Positions 16,737 to 24,484 of a stretch of DNA of 64,000 bases are shown here, piece after piece. The notes under the pieces are model-generated. The model ran no database searches and was not told the DNA's origin. It was given only the letters and a program-made list of their open reading frames with translations. The DNA lies in the NCBI RefSeq assembly GCF_988242995.1, contig NZ_OZ547043.1; one strand, written 5' to 3'. Each line of letters begins with the position of its first letter. Position 1 is the stretch's first letter. The position numbers and the translations under genes are program-made.

Positions 16737-17597
16737 TTAATCCTTACTTAGCGCATACACCGTCTGACCACGCAGCGTGAAGCGGCGCTCAAGGTGGCTA
16801 AAGTTTTCAGAGTGACCCGCAAACAGCAATCCGTCGGGTTTAAGGAGCGGAACAAAGCGGCGCAAAATCTCCTGCTGGGTATTTTGATCGAAGTAGATCA
16901 TGACGTTACGACAGAAGATCGCATCAAACGGCCCCGGCACGGTGTACTGTTTCGCCAGTAGATTCAGCGGGGCAAAATCAACATAGTTCGCCAGCTCCTG
17001 ACGCACGCGTACCAGCCCTTCATGCGGTCCCGTCCCTCGCATGAAATACCGTTGCAGTTGCTGCGGCGTCAGGTTTTTCAACTCTTCATGGCGATAAATA
17101 CCGCTTCTGGCTTTTTCCAGCACTTTGGTGTCGATATCACTGGCAAACACTTTCCAGCGTCCGGGCGCGGTGCCCAATGTGTCAGCCAGCGTCATCGCAA
17201 TGCTGTACGGCTCTTCGCCGGTCGAAGCCGCCGCGCTCCATACGCGATACTCGCCAGAACGGCGACGTGCGTGATCCGCGAGCAGAGGGAAATGGTGTGC
17301 CTCACGGAAAAATGCCGTCAGATTCGTGGTCAGCGAATTGATAAACGCCTGCCACTCACCGCTGTGCTGATTAGATTCCAGCAAGTTCAGATAATGACCG
17401 AAATCCGTCAGTCCCAGCGAACGCAAACGACGAACCAGTCGGTTGTAAACCATGTCGCGTTTATGGTCAGCCAGAACGATCCCGGCTCGTTGATAGATCA
17501 ATTGACTTATCCGCCGAAAATGCGCGTCGGAAAGCGCCAGGCGCTCGGTCATCTGTAACAATAAAGACGTTTGCCCACAGGGCAGAGATGAAGTCAT
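16737..17597 (-). CDS. cheR: chemoreceptor methyltransferase CheR (286 aa)
   Basis: ORF track; protein recalled as CheR. Confidence 0.96.
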
Positions 17598-17615
17598 AGC
17601 GCCTTCTCAATCACT

Positions 17616-19217
17616 TCAGGATACCACTGGCGCAATTTGTAACTGCACCGACTCATGTCGTGCTACTTCATATTCTTCAAGGGTAAATACCGCCACACGC
17701 GACGAAAGATGGTCGGCCTGATTCGCCAGTTGTTCCGTTGCCACCGCCGCTTCTTCTACCAGCGAGGCGTTCTGCTGAGTCACCTGATCCATCTGGCTGA
17801 CAGCCTGTGCAACCTGCTCAATCCCCCGCTGTTGTTCTTCCGACGCAGAGGCAATTTCTCCCATAATGTCGTTCACGCGGGTCACCGAACTGACAATATC
17901 GATCATGGTCGCGGCGGCGTTATTCACCAGTTTCGAACCCTGCTGGACACGATTGACTGACTCTTCGATCAGCCCTTTGATCTCTTTTGCTGCCTGCGCG
18001 CTACGGCTGGCAAGATTGCGCACTTCACCTGCCACTACCGCAAAACCACGCCCCTGCTCTCCGGCGCGAGCCGCTTCCACTGCCGCATTCAGGGCCAGAA
18101 TATTGGTCTGGAAAGCAATTCCGTCGATAACGCTGATAATGTCGCCAATTTTTTGCGAGCTGGTGGCGATCTCCTGCATGGTGTGAGTCATGGTACTGAC
18201 CTGAACACCGCCCGCCTGCGCCGTTGTCGCGGCATTTTTTGCCAGTTCCGACGCCTGTCGTGCGTTATCGGCGTTTTGCCCTACCGTGGCGGTTAATTGC
18301 TCCATACTGGCGGCCGTTTGTGCCAGCGATGCCGCCTGCTGTTCGGTACGACTTGAGAGATCGTTATTGCCTGCGACAATCTCCGCGATACCAATGTGCA
18401 TCTCCTGGCTTCCCTTACGCACATCACTTACCGTCCCACGCAAAGCCTGCTGCATGGTCTTCAGACTGGCAAAAATGGCGGTGATCTCATTACGACCATA
18501 TACCGCAATCGGACGCGCCAGATTACCCGCAGCAATGCTGTCAAAATGGCTACCGATAATGGCCAGTGGTTGAACAATCATCTTGCGCGTCCACCACAGC
18601 GCACTGCTGATGTAGATCGCCGCAACAATAATCATGCTGATAAACACCAGTGCCGAAATCTGATAGTTACGCTGGCTTTGCGCACTGGCGGCTTCCAGCA
18701 CATGGTTGATCTCCAGCTGCCAGGCCTCAAAGTTAACGTCAAACGCATTCTGTGATCCCTGCACCGGCGCAGTGAGGAAATCCGAAAGTTGATTACTTTC
18801 AAGCCAGGTCGCCTGATGTTCGAGATCGTTGTGCCAGCGGGCAAAACTTTTCTCCGTCTCTTTTTGCAATGCCCTGACGTGCTCGTTGCCCGCAGTCATC
18901 GCCATAAAACTTTTAAACAGCGTGGTGGATTGCGTCAGACTGGCGCGCGCCGTCGTCATCAACGTTTTAATGTCATCCGCCGGATAGCTAAGTGCCGTCA
19001 GAGTGCCCGCTTTGTTCAGCGCGGTACTGGCCTGTAACATTACCGCCCGAGTTTGCGCTAATGCCGCACGTTGCTGATTGCTCTGCTCGACCTGATTCAG
19101 TCGTTGCAAATCGTCGCGAAATGCCCAAAAAGACATGCCGTTACTGCCAATCTGCAAGATCCCGCAGAGAATCAAAATTAAAAACAGCGTGGTCGAAATT
19201 CGAATACGATTAAACAT
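17616..19217 (-). CDS. tap: methyl-accepting chemotaxis protein IV Tap (dipeptide/pyrimidine sensor, 533 aa)
   Basis: ORF track; MCP signalling domain highly similar to adjacent tar; start at MFNRIRIS. Confidence 0.93.
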   Translation of the reverse strand: MFNRIRISTTLFLILILCGILQIGSNGMSFWAFRDDLQRLNQVEQSNQQRAALAQTRAVMLQASTALNKAGTLTALSYPADDIKTLMTTARASLTQSTTLFKSFMAMTAGNEHVRALQKETEKSFARWHNDLEHQATWLESNQLSDFLTAPVQGSQNAFDVNFEAWQLEINHVLEAASAQSQRNYQISALVFISMIIVAAIYISSALWWTRKMIVQPLAIIGSHFDSIAAGNLARPIAVYGRNEITAIFASLKTMQQALRGTVSDVRKGSQEMHIGIAEIVAGNNDLSSRTEQQAASLAQTAASMEQLTATVGQNADNARQASELAKNAATTAQAGGVQVSTMTHTMQEIATSSQKIGDIISVIDGIAFQTNILALNAAVEAARAGEQGRGFAVVAGEVRNLASRSAQAAKEIKGLIEESVNRVQQGSKLVNNAAATMIDIVSSVTRVNDIMGEIASASEEQQRGIEQVAQAVSQMDQVTQQNASLVEEAAVATEQLANQADHLSSRVAVFTLEEYEVARHESVQLQIAPVVS

Positions 19218-19262
19218 CAACGCTCCCCATCAGGCGGCAATGACCGCGTTAGTAAATACTCG

Positions 19263-20924
19263 TCAAAATGTTTCCCAGTTTGGATCTTGTTCAGCAATTC
19301 GCAGTCGTGGCTGTGCCGGTGGTTGCTCACTGGCAGGACGGGATGGTGTTTGCGGTTTATTGGTGAGTGGGCTGGCTGCCAGACGGAACGCGGAAACCGC
19401 TTGCGTTAAACGACTCGCCTGTTCTTCCAGCGCAGCGGCGGCGGCAGCTGATTCCTGCACCAGCGATGCGTTCTGTTGCGTGACGCGATCCATTTCCGAA
19501 ACCGCCAATGCGACTTGATCGATGCCACGGCTCTGTTCATCCGATGCCGATGCAATCTCGCCCATAATGTCAGTCACGCGAGTGACAGCATTGACGATAT
19601 TGTTCATTGTTTCCCCGGCGCTTTCGACCAGCACCGAACCGGTATCAACGCGTGAGACGGAGTCTTCAATGAGGGCTTTGATCTCTTTTGCCGCCTGGGC
19701 GCTGCGACTGGCAAGATTACGCACTTCACCCGCCACCACGGCAAAACCACGGCCCTGTTCACCCGCACGCGCGGCTTCAACCGCGGCATTCAGCGCGAGG
19801 ATATTAGTCTGGAAGGCAATACCGTCGATAACGCTGATAATGTCGGCAATTTTCTTCGAACTATCGGCGATCTCATGCATCGTTTTCACTACGCCATCCA
19901 CCACTTTGCCGCCGTGCTGGGCGGTGTCGGAGGCACTTTGCGCCAGTTGCGAGGCCTGGCGGGCGTTATCGGCGTTTTGCTTCACTGTCGCGGTGAGCTG
20001 CTCCATGCTGGCGGCAGTTTCTTCCAGCGCGGATGCCTGCTGTTCAGTACGGGAGGAAAGATCGGTGTTGCCCGCCGCAATTTCACGGGTACCGGCATAG
20101 ATGGCATCTGAACCTTCGCGGACATGAGTGACGGTGTCAGTCAAAGAGCGTTGCATATGTGAAACGCTCTGCGCCAGGTCGCCCATTTCACTGCGCCCGT
20201 CAATGGTCAGGGTATTCGCCAGGTTACCACCGGCGATTTCGCGAATGTGAGCAATAATTTTTGCCAGCGGAGTAAGCAACATACGGCGAATGCCGTACCA
20301 CGCCACCAGCAGAATCAATACCACCACCAGCGCGATAACCGCCAGTTGCCACTGGGCAAATCGGTAATCATCTGCGTTGTCAGTGACGATATCGCGATAC
20401 AGTTTTTCACTGCTGAGGGCGTACTGAGCAAACGCTTCGCCCATTGCATTTTGCATTCCCTGGGTTGGCTGAGCGAAATAAGCTCCAGTATTGCCATAAT
20501 CTAGATAATCAATCAGTTCAGTTAACGCTGTGTAATAGTTTTTATATTTTTCATCAATATTACGACTGGTAGCGACCATTTCAGGTAACGGTGCCATGCT
20601 TTTGAATTTTTTATAATGCGTCGCTGCCTGCGCCAATGTTTTCCTGGCGCTATCGAGCAATTCAACTTTGGCGTTACTTTGTTGATTGGAGGAATCCATC
20701 ATCATCCGTACCGCTGAACGACTCAGGTTAATGCGCGTTTGCAGCATTAAATCCCAGGTTGACGTCAGCTCGCCCTGCTGTTCCCGTAATTGATTGGAAA
20801 CCACAAAGCTCTTCTGGCTATGGTGAAGGGAAGAAAAAAACAGACTGCCGGAAATAAGCTGTAACAGTGCGAATACCCCCAGCACCATTACCAACAGCGT
20901 GACTACGCGGATACGGTTAATCAT
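19263..20924 (-). CDS. tar: methyl-accepting chemotaxis protein II Tar (aspartate/maltose sensor, 553 aa)
   Basis: ORF track 19263..20945; start set at MINRIRVV; C-terminal NWETF pentapeptide present. Confidence 0.94.
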
Positions 20925-20955
20925 AAGGCACCTTCCTGAAAACAAGTTGATCTCG

Positions 20956-20982
20956 TTATCGGCAAGGAGGGGGGAAACTTTA
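20956..20982 (-). promoter_or_regulatory. sigma28 (FliA) class 3 promoter of the tar-tap-cheRBYZ operon
   Basis: minus strand TAAAGTTT-N11-GCCGATAA, exact consensus halves, about 25-30 nt upstream of tar start. Confidence 0.8.
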
Positions 20983-21012
20983 TTGCTGATGCCACCCGCC
21001 GCGAAATTGAAA

Positions 21013-21040
21013 TAAAAAACCCGATGCGCAGATCATCGGG
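21013..21040 (-). terminator. rho-independent terminator after cheW (end of motAB-cheAW operon)
   Basis: minus-strand stem cccgatg/catcggg followed by U-tract. Confidence 0.8.
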
Positions 21041-21068
21041 TTCATTTCAATTGAGGAAATCGGGAGAA

Positions 21069-21572
21069 TTACGCCACTTCTGACGCCGCGCTATCTAACA
21101 GCGCCATCTCTTCGCTGTTCAGCAGTTTTTCGATGTTCACCAGAATCAACATCCGGTCGCCCAGTGCGCCCAGTCCAGTGAGATATTCTGTTGAAAGCGT
21201 CACGGCAAATTCCGGTGCCGGACGAATTTGCTCCGCCGTCAATGAAAGCACGTCTGAGACGCCGTCAACCACGATGCCGACCACCCGCTGTCCGAGATTC
21301 AGGACGATAACTACCGTGTTGTCGTTATAGTCCACATCCACCTGGCTGAACTTAATTCGTAAGTCAACAATCGGCACAATAACGCCGCGCAGATTCGTGA
21401 CGCCTTTGATAAACGCTGGCGTGTTCGCAATCCGTGTTACCTGATCGTAGCCACGGATCTCCTGCACTTTCAGGATATCAATACCGTACTCTTCATCACC
21501 AAGGGTAAATACCAGAAATTCCTGGCCTGACGGCTCGCTGGCCAGCTTTGTTACATTCGTCATACCGGTCAT
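21069..21572 (-). CDS. cheW: chemotaxis coupling protein CheW (167 aa)
   Basis: ORF track; protein recalled as CheW. Confidence 0.96.

Positions 21573-21592: not shown

Positions 21593-24484
<2,892 letters not shown>

Follow-up and report, generated by a model that had tools for sequence, protein, structure and literature searches.

Slocum, Halden and Parkinson (J Bacteriol 169:2938; PMC212330) reportedly described in 1987 spontaneous deletions between homologous regions of the E. coli K-12 tar and tap genes that gave rise to Tar-Tap hybrids, which means that the feature considered here was already known. Those hybrids are said to share with ours the genes, the orientation, the class of mechanism (deletion between C-terminal coding regions) and the product, a Tar N-terminus followed by a Tap C-terminus, but they were laboratory isolates, whereas the fusions reported below come from wild isolates. 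Weerasuriya, Schneider and Manson (J Bacteriol 180:914) reportedly engineered Tar-Tap and Tap-Tar chimeras in 1998 and found that the cytoplasmic domain sets high- versus low-abundance behavior; these involve the same receptors but were built in vitro at chosen joints. Loss of Tap together with truncation of Trg in phylogroup B2 and uropathogenic E. coli is credited to Lane et al. 2006 and Borziak et al. 2013 in PMC12623472 and PMC3559539. It affects the same locus as the fusions but by a different mechanism, a 1374-nt deletion internal to tap. A literature search, beyond which most subscription-journal papers lie, returned no relevant report of natural Tar-Tap fusion alleles or of an E. fergusonii Tar without NWETF, which is weak evidence of novelty. 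We regard the tar/tap repeat and its tendency to form hybrids as known since the 1980s, and the natural alleles as a modest addition.

We analyzed a window of 64,000 nucleotides (NCBI RefSeq assembly GCF_988242995.1, contig NZ_OZ547043.1), which carries both receptor genes and their promoter:

19263..20924, minus strand: tar, coding for the aspartate/maltose chemoreceptor MCP-II, 553 aa (open reading frame, ATG start, Pfam, RefSeq)
17616..19217, minus strand: tap, coding for the dipeptide chemoreceptor MCP-IV, 533 aa (open reading frame, translation, Pfam, RefSeq)
19218..19262, minus strand: tar-tap intergenic spacer of 45 nt, absent from every fusion allele
20955..20982, minus strand: FliA (sigma-28) class 3 promoter of the tar-tap-cheRBYZ operon (exact match to the published site, PMC4183435)

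Both gene identities given in the initial annotation proved right. A Pfam search placed a TarH domain at the N-terminus, followed by HAMP and MCPsignal, in Tar (2.9e-41, 1.6e-11 and 8.3e-63) as well as in Tap (2.2e-42, 1.7e-09 and 5.7e-56), all above the Pfam cut-offs, the architecture of Tar/Tsr-type methyl-accepting chemotaxis proteins. RefSeq uses the same names at a 100%-identical locus, where the genes lie between cheW and cheR. Open reading frames and RefSeq agree on the order cheW, tar, tap, cheR, cheB, cheY on a single strand. With the same high confidence that we place in the explanation as a whole, tar and tap open the meche operon of E. coli (tar-tap-cheRBYZ). The pentapeptide NWETF serves as a tether for CheR and CheB and marks high-abundance receptors. 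The translations end in ...DPNWETF for Tar and in ...IAPVVS for Tap, which has no NWETF, so that Tar is of the high- and Tap of the low-abundance type. An exact copy of the published FliA site of the meche operon (PMC4183435) precedes tar. Both genes are intact and the window holds no Tar-Tap hybrid; as a canonical E. coli tar-tap pair it has little significance by itself.

Comparison of the two genes revealed a same-orientation repeat on one in-register diagonal at offset +1701. This diagonal holds 33 shared 11-mers, while no diagonal in the shuffled sequences exceeded five (n=50 shuffles), and the pair thus qualifies as a tandem direct repeat, a case of segmental paralogy. Its parts are as follows:

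19447..20156, minus strand: homeologous direct repeat, tar copy, which encodes the cytoplasmic part for adaptation and signalling, roughly residues 257-493 (diagonal +1701)
17746..18455, minus strand: homeologous direct repeat, corresponding tap copy (diagonal +1701)
17975..18152, minus strand: best-conserved core, tap copy, 86% nucleotide identity over 178 nt (tar partner 19676-19853)
18121..18144: longest exact run, 24 nt, paired with 19822-19845 in tar; the crossovers of ET474 and PEC389 fall here
18262..18279: next-longest exact run, 18 nt, paired with 19963-19980 in tar; the crossovers of ETEC4088 and of proteins P0001 and P0019-22/24 fall here

The two 60-mers quoted in the initial annotation were found exactly, at 18087 in tap and 19788 in tar, and the repeat it described is real. 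Its description as near-identical over several hundred bp was overstated: the copies at 17746-18455 and 19447-20156 share 71% identity over 710 nt, a stretch of 518 nt reaches 75%, and the best 178 nt reach 86%, short of near-identity if this is taken as several hundred bp at 95% or more, or as many runs well above about 25 nt. Extent and spacing also need adjusting. The repeat does lie within both genes, which were claimed in full (17616-20924), but covers only about 0.7 kb of each, the N-terminal halves being unrepeated at the DNA level (21–50% identity), and the copies lie 1701 nt apart instead of about 1.65 kb. "GC-rich" holds mildly, at 56–57% in the repeat against 50% across the whole window. 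The self-comparison proposed as a check, with identity under about 70% or exclusively short matching runs counting against the claim, came out divided, since 70% is just cleared but the matching runs are all short, the longest exact ones measuring 24, 18 and 16 nt. The minimal efficient processing segment for RecA exchange is about 23–27 nt; only one of the exact runs reaches this length, and the copies are a poor substrate for exchange by RecA.

The repeat had been predicted to yield Tar-Tap hybrids and to delete tap, and natural alleles bear this out. Using an artificial tar-tap hybrid as query and requiring a match in a single piece, we found a fusion in three of 5,426 complete E. coli genomes (0.06%), namely ET474 (GCF_041320105.1), PEC389 (GCF_056989455.1) and ETEC4088 (GCF_030013145.1). 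Each carries one in-frame CDS of 1608 nt between cheW and cheR, which replaces tar and tap by an exact deletion of 1701 nt. Parent-informative sites show one clean switch, located in the 24-nt run in ET474 and PEC389 and in the 18-nt run in ETEC4088. The first two were counted as one event because their 4.7-kb loci are identical, although they may be two. The proteins end in ...IAPVVS and lack NWETF. The carriers are wild isolates of frog, pig and human origin. In public data the two exact fusion proteins turn up on 71 and 28 contigs, and the alleles persist in lineages. In-frame hybrids with one parental switch and a lost spacer were found in several draft contigs as well as in the three complete genomes. 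Draft assemblies (loci L013-L015) added further in-register crossovers, given here in tap coordinates:

18334-18344: identical run of 11 nt
18307-18314: identical run of 8 nt
18316-18319: identical run of 4 nt

Other junction variants exist, one of them from Shigella flexneri, as do out-of-register tar-tap fusions of 771, 688 and 680 aa with microhomologies of 2, 9 and 0 nt. An independent fusion occurs in Enterobacter, and from E. fergusonii we recovered tar sequences (a 74-member cluster and a 519-aa variant) in which the Tar body is followed by the last five Tap codons, without NWETF. All in all, at least five different in-register junctions were seen in E. coli and Shigella. The reciprocal product, a triplication of tar, a tap-tar hybrid and tap, gave no single-piece match to an artificial junction query in the 5,426 genomes.

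We consider it very likely that tar and tap are an old paralogous pair whose repeat is a structural liability, occasionally giving rise to an in-frame Tar-Tap gene by an exact deletion of 1701 nt. The repeat itself would then have no function. On rare occasions a short identical run (24, 18, 11, 8 or 4 nt) would allow strand exchange or slipped mispairing, which would remove exactly 1701 nt and join the Tar periplasmic sensor, transmembrane segments and HAMP domain to the signalling tip and C-terminus of Tap. Upstream, the hybrid gene would still have the native FliA promoter, and downstream the junction of tap with cheR would be unchanged.

The route of the deletion is the point at which another explanation comes closest. 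Fusions may have arisen by RecA-independent short-homology events (replication slippage, template switching or single-strand annealing) and not by homologous recombination, in which case the paralogy would count only as a source of in-frame microhomologies; we rate this somewhat below an even chance. Identity at the tar-tap junctions spans just 4–24 nt, the out-of-register fusions made use of 2, 9 and 0 nt, and other deletions in the two genes, the B2 deletion in tap, a 222-nt deletion in tar and an 81-nt deletion in tap, occurred at repeats of 8, 19 and 6 nt, respectively. However, the two alleles seen in complete genomes are also the ones found most widely, and their crossovers fall exactly in the two longest identical runs; if crossovers were placed uniformly, both events would land in the 24-nt and 18-nt runs with P ~0.004, and such a dependence on run length fits homology-driven exchange. 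Slippage also favors longer repeats, and the run lengths therefore discriminate weakly. Given the junctions of 4–11 nt and the out-of-register fusions, the events may be short-homology or illegitimate deletions, and the surrounding homeology may merely help their alignment.

A hybrid would lose dipeptide sensing as well as NWETF, by which the C-terminus of Tar tethers CheR and CheB. For this reason it is expected to act as a "low-abundance" type aspartate/maltose sensor that depends on Tsr for adaptation. One may ask if Tar-Tap fusions recur in nature as a polymorphism and are retained by some lineages because they are useful, which we think improbable. Speaking for recurrence are the five or more in-register junctions, the two alleles on 71 and 28 contigs, the Enterobacter fusion and the Tap-tailed tar sequences of E. 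fergusonii. If this were true, a 1.7-kb deletion would create an NWETF-less, Tap-tailed aspartate/maltose receptor, thereby retuning adaptation kinetics and the share in the receptor array while dropping dipeptide taxis.

Continuing gene conversion (concerted evolution) could maintain the likeness of the two genes and provide a recently homogenized, efficient recombination substrate, an idea that we hold very improbable, even though tar and tap adjoin and are co-oriented and though their same-codon fraction at identical residues, 0.52, lies above the 0.38 expected from codon usage alone. The excess is common to all paralogue pairs (0.53 for tar-tsr, 0.49 for tar-trg) and is therefore not specific to the tandem pair. 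In the cytoplasmic region tar shares 70% nucleotide identity with tap, 77% with tsr and 69% with trg. The unlinked tsr is nearer to tar in identity and codon choice than the neighboring tap is, and the longest exact tar/tap run has only 24 nt, which largely refutes conversion. In K-12, tsr lies about 2.6 Mb from tar. The core at 17975..18152 encodes the hairpin-tip block with an amino acid identity of 1.00 and a third-position identity of only 0.47. Third codon positions that have strongly diverged, together with the position of tsr, point to protein-level constraint on old MCP paralogues and away from recent duplication or gene conversion as the probable origin of the likeness. Strong purifying selection would keep the cytoplasmic adaptation and kinase-control domains of Tar and Tap alike because they need to fit CheA, CheW and mixed receptor trimers, and would leave behind two homeologous copies of about 0.7 kb in direct orientation, offset by 1701 nt and sharing 70–86% nucleotide identity. 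The signalling regions of tsr and trg represent this conserved cytoplasmic domain as well, and their identity to tar is similar to or above that of tap. Unlike tap, both are unlinked to tar, and trg is oppositely oriented to it in K-12; an exchange with tar would for this reason give large rearrangements and not a clean 1.7-kb deletion.

That the fusion genes are assembly or annotation artefacts from repeat collapse can be all but dismissed, since, despite the many occurrences in short-read draft assemblies and a related Tar-Trg hybrid on a 2.9-kb contig (GCA_044593075.1), fusions stand in three finished circular chromosomes with intact flanks, identical proteins recur on those independent contigs (71 and 28), all fusions keep the reading frame and switch parents cleanly once, and junction identity of at most 24 nt, below the usual assembler k-mers, between copies only about 75% identical makes collapse unlikely.

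Opposite both repeat copies the plus strand contains open reading frames of 192, 119, 106, 101 and 95 aa. Three of them lie as follows:

19522..20100, plus strand: antisense open reading frame of 192 aa opposite the tar copy, judged an artefact (12% of synonymous shuffles equal or longer)
17866..18186, plus strand: antisense open reading frame of 106 aa opposite the tap copy, judged an artefact
17655-17960, plus strand: antisense open reading frame of 101 aa opposite the tap copy, judged an artefact

The lengths fall within the range of synonymous-codon shuffles, 12–76% of which were as long or longer, and a Pfam search returned no match for any of the frames. We rejected them as real overlapping genes on these grounds; as the initial annotation had it, they are supported as compositional artefacts.

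Loss of tap is not confined to the fusions. About one fifth of the complete genomes compared have lost the gene, and one segment accounts for the phylogroup B2 type:

17725..19098: segment of 1374 nt internal to tap, absent in phylogroup-B2-type genomes (Nissle 1917, LF82 and others)

It is flanked by 8-nt copies of CCTGATTC at 17717-17724 and 19091-19098. The tar gene is left whole, NWETF tail included, and the tar/tap repeat plays no part. Recombination between tar and tap was ruled out as its cause, given the 1374-nt length, the position inside tap, the 8-nt microhomology and the untouched tar. This tap-internal deletion is the dominant natural route to tap loss, and fusions are rare (0.06%).

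For the study of deletion formation the locus offers a clean natural example in which junctions between repeats of about 75% identity cluster in the longest perfect runs. Annotation pipelines call the natural 535-aa hybrids "methyl-accepting chemotaxis protein II", so that receptor inventories of E. coli strains can overlook that tap is gone and that Tar lacks its NWETF tail. With the tap-internal deletion of B2, tar-tap fusion and IS1-mediated truncation, tap has been lost by at least three different routes, a sign that many niches may not require Tap.

The E. coli chemotaxis cluster occupies the minus strand of the window, where the ORF list gives the following genes:

21593-23611, minus strand, cheA
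21069-21572, minus strand, cheW
19263-20924, minus strand, tar (ATG start; 553 aa, ending in NWETF, the tether for CheR and CheB)
17616-19217, minus strand, tap (ATG start; 533 aa, ending in IAPVVS)
16737-17597, minus strand, cheR
minus strand, cheB and cheY

A spacer of 45 nt separates tar and tap, and both proteins contain TarH, HAMP and MCPsignal domains (Pfam). From cheR to cheW the sequence matches E. coli strain H9Ecoli at 100% identity and K-12 at 99.8%; in H9Ecoli, RefSeq calls the first gene tar (methyl-accepting chemotaxis protein II) and the second tap (MCP IV). At 20955-20982 lies the FliA promoter published for the tar-tap-cheRBYZ operon (PMC4183435), with zero mismatches. Upstream of this promoter, just past cheW, a GC-rich hairpin with a T-run behind it (20983-21068, minus strand; cccgatgatctgcgcatcgggttttttatt) looks like a candidate terminator of the mocha operon.

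The cytoplasmic signalling regions of tar and tap had been described in the initial annotation as near-identical over several hundred bp at a spacing of about 1.65 kb. The 60-mers quoted there match exactly at 18087 and 19788, and the same-orientation repeat does exist and greatly exceeds chance expectation: every significant word match falls on a single diagonal, with 33 shared 11-mers compared to at most 5 on any diagonal of shuffled sequence. The actual offset is 1701 nt, which is also the spacing of the gapless families of 300 nt and 185 nt (73–74% identity) returned by a repeat search. The observation is only partly confirmed, since the repeat is weaker than claimed. Identity between 17746-18455 in tap and 19447-20156 in tar is 71% over 710 nt; it is 75% across 518 nt and 86% in the best 178 nt (17975-18152 in tap). 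The N-terminal sensor halves show no likeness at the DNA level. Only three exact runs reach at least 16 nt:

18121-18144, tap copy, 24-nt run
18262-18279, tap copy, 18-nt run
17975-17990, tap copy, 16-nt run

In a codon-level alignment the hairpin-tip block is 100% identical in amino acids and at codon positions 1 and 2, and just 47% identical at third positions, so that the similarity of tar and tap is kept at the protein level. Using tsr and trg from K-12 as unlinked comparison genes, we determined nucleotide identities over the cytoplasmic region of 77% for tar-tsr, 70% for tar-tap and 69% for tar-trg. The same codon is used at identical residues in fractions of 0.53, 0.52 and 0.49, respectively, compared to 0.38 expected from codon usage alone. 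The tandem pair thus does not exceed the unlinked pairs in similarity, and we see no sign of gene conversion between tar and tap or of a recent duplication. The repeat is what an ancient MCP signalling domain under strong constraint ordinarily leaves in the DNA.

Plus-strand ORFs of 192, 119, 106, 101 and 95 aa lie opposite tar and tap. We permuted synonymous codons within each gene, holding protein and codon counts fixed; antisense ORFs of at least the observed length arose in 12% of tar shuffles (192 aa) and in 36–76% of tap shuffles, and those of tsr and trg behaved likewise. None of the ORFs has a Pfam match. We reject them as real genes, in agreement with their earlier dismissal as artefacts.

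The repeat had been predicted to recombine into Tar-Tap hybrids or to delete tap, and a screen for such alleles had been suggested. We ran it on 5,426 complete E. coli genomes with an artificial junction query (17300-18132 joined to 19834-20700). A single uninterrupted match was obtained in three of them: ET474 (frog, China), PEC389 (pig, Korea) and ETEC4088 (pig, Belgium). Each carries one 1608-nt CDS between cheW and cheR, annotated plain 'tar', and a deletion of exactly 1701 nt. The tar/tap repeat is thus a substrate for precise in-frame deletion, as predicted. Mapping parental type at all sites that differ between the window's tar and tap showed each allele to change parentage cleanly and only once, from tar-type to tap-type sites, between 18120 and 18145 in ET474 and PEC389, inside the 24-nt run, and between 18261 and 18280 in ETEC4088, inside the 18-nt run. 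These junctions, the best documented, fall on the longest runs of perfect identity. Because ET474 and PEC389 do not differ across 4.7 kb, they were taken as one event; for two events both to fall in the two longest runs, P is about 0.004 under uniform crossover placement along the 710-nt repeat. The reciprocal duplication product was not found in the 5,426 genomes.

In a collection of 15 billion proteins, fully identical copies of these two fusion proteins were recovered from 71 and 28 contigs under the name 'methyl-accepting chemotaxis protein II'. A homology search added further 535-aa in-register fusions, one attributed to Shigella flexneri, whose DNA junctions fall in smaller runs of identity, of 11 nt (18334-18344), 8 nt (18307-18314) and 4 nt (18316-18319), all in the proper cheW-[fusion]-cheR context. 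The 18-nt junction occurs on differing tar and tap haplotype backgrounds, which suggests either repeated origin or subsequent recombination. All five in-register junctions lie within 18121-18344, the half of the repeat coding for the N-terminal helix as far as the hairpin tip, and none in the C-terminal-helix half (17746-18120) despite its 16-nt run and several 11-nt runs; this one-sided placement may reflect selection or chance, the independent events being too few to separate the two. Draft E. coli genomes also hold out-of-register tar-tap fusions, whose receptors carry HAMP and signalling segments in duplicate or two regions resembling a sensor:

P0017 (L016), 771 aa, deletion 993 nt, microhomology 2 nt
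P0018 (L017), 688 aa, deletion 1242 nt, microhomology 9 nt
P0028 (L018), 680 aa, deletion 1266 nt, microhomology 0 nt

An Enterobacter fusion (P0084, 535 aa, 14 member sequences; gene at L012 130-1737, Logan SRR11450272) is 96–98% identical to Enterobacter Tar over residues 1-400 and Tap-like thereafter, with the crossover somewhere within the invariant hairpin block; a partial ORF at the contig end downstream is a putative cheR by position and spacing. In an E. fergusonii-type contig (L011 3001-4580; 519–521 aa, 74-member cluster) tar encodes Tar through ...SAFRL, followed by the last five Tap codons (APVVS), the tap-cheR spacer and directly cheR, lacking tap and NWETF. Fimbrial usher and SCPU genes replace cheW upstream.

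Other rearrangements were also encountered. In P0051 (L019 417-2027, a 2.9-kb contig of GCA_044593075.1) the QNADNA block is the joint between a Tar N-terminus and a Trg C-terminus; the cheW end flanks the gene on one side, and on the other is a minus-strand gene in the position of ydcI. This would require a tar-trg inversion of about 480 kb, or else the contig is chimeric. P0033 (739 aa, 7 contigs, the longest 4.69 Mb) combines a Tar-like protein with an FHIPEP (FlhA) Pfam domain, suggesting a larger deletion that joined tar to flhA and removed tap-cheRBYZ-flhB. In strain 2023CK-01509 (L008 1789-3691) IS1A adjoins a tap truncated at its 3' end, argS lying on the opposite side, and cheR and downstream genes having been lost through an IS-associated deletion. 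In strain 673 (L006 3464-4903), PI24 and 472, 222 nt are deleted in frame from the cytoplasmic domain of tar (19544-19746 gone) between 19-nt overlapping repeats (19525-19543 and 19747-19765); the annotation reads 'Tar ligand binding domain-containing protein'. In LD39-1 and four further genomes (L007 1817-3337) the adaptation region of tap has lost 81 nt (27 codons) in frame, around 18258-18332, with a junction overlap of about 6 nt.

Searching the same complete genomes with the 4.8-kb cheR-cheW interval, we found it in full in 4,319 of 5,426. About one fifth, such as the B2-type strains Nissle 1917, LF82 and S13, matched only 72% of it. Here 1374 nt are missing wholly within tap (17725-19098), between two CCTGATTC octamers; the deletion has an in-frame length and leaves a 130-nt tap remnant, which PGAP labels a 'Tar ligand binding domain-containing protein' pseudogene in a Nissle 1917 derivative (L001). 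With the loss confined to tap and tar untouched, an exchange between tar and tap is ruled out as its origin. The deletion agrees with the Tap loss already recorded for phylogroup B2 and uropathogenic strains, as summarised in PMC12623472 and PMC3559539.

As to how the fusions form, we consider it a serious possibility, somewhat short of probable, that they arose through RecA-independent slippage or annealing. A run of 24 nt is at the lower limit of homology needed for RecBCD/RecA exchange, and mismatch repair should suppress recombination where two copies agree at only about 75% of positions. The in-register junctions of 4–11 nt, the fusions out of register and further deletions at short repeats in this locus (the B2 tap deletion, the 222-nt tar deletion with its 19-nt overlap and the 81-nt tap deletion) point equally to such a process.

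The hybrid receptor produced by deletion across the repeat would retain the ligand specificity of Tar. Since NWETF is missing, it should depend on Tsr for efficient adaptation, an expectation for which the work of Slocum et al. in 1987 and Weerasuriya et al. in 1998 reportedly provides the basis. The homology of tar and tap has been recognised since these genes were sequenced in the 1980s. Slocum, Halden and Parkinson are said to have described in 1987 spontaneous Tar-Tap fusions by exchange between homologous regions, and fusion by this route is therefore already known. We found no description of natural Tar-Tap fusions in a literature search that covered a minority of the relevant journals. 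Our survey adds that wild isolates of several species carry Tar-Tap fusions which persist there, that the junctions follow the longest stretches of identity and that annotation lists the fusions as plain Tar.
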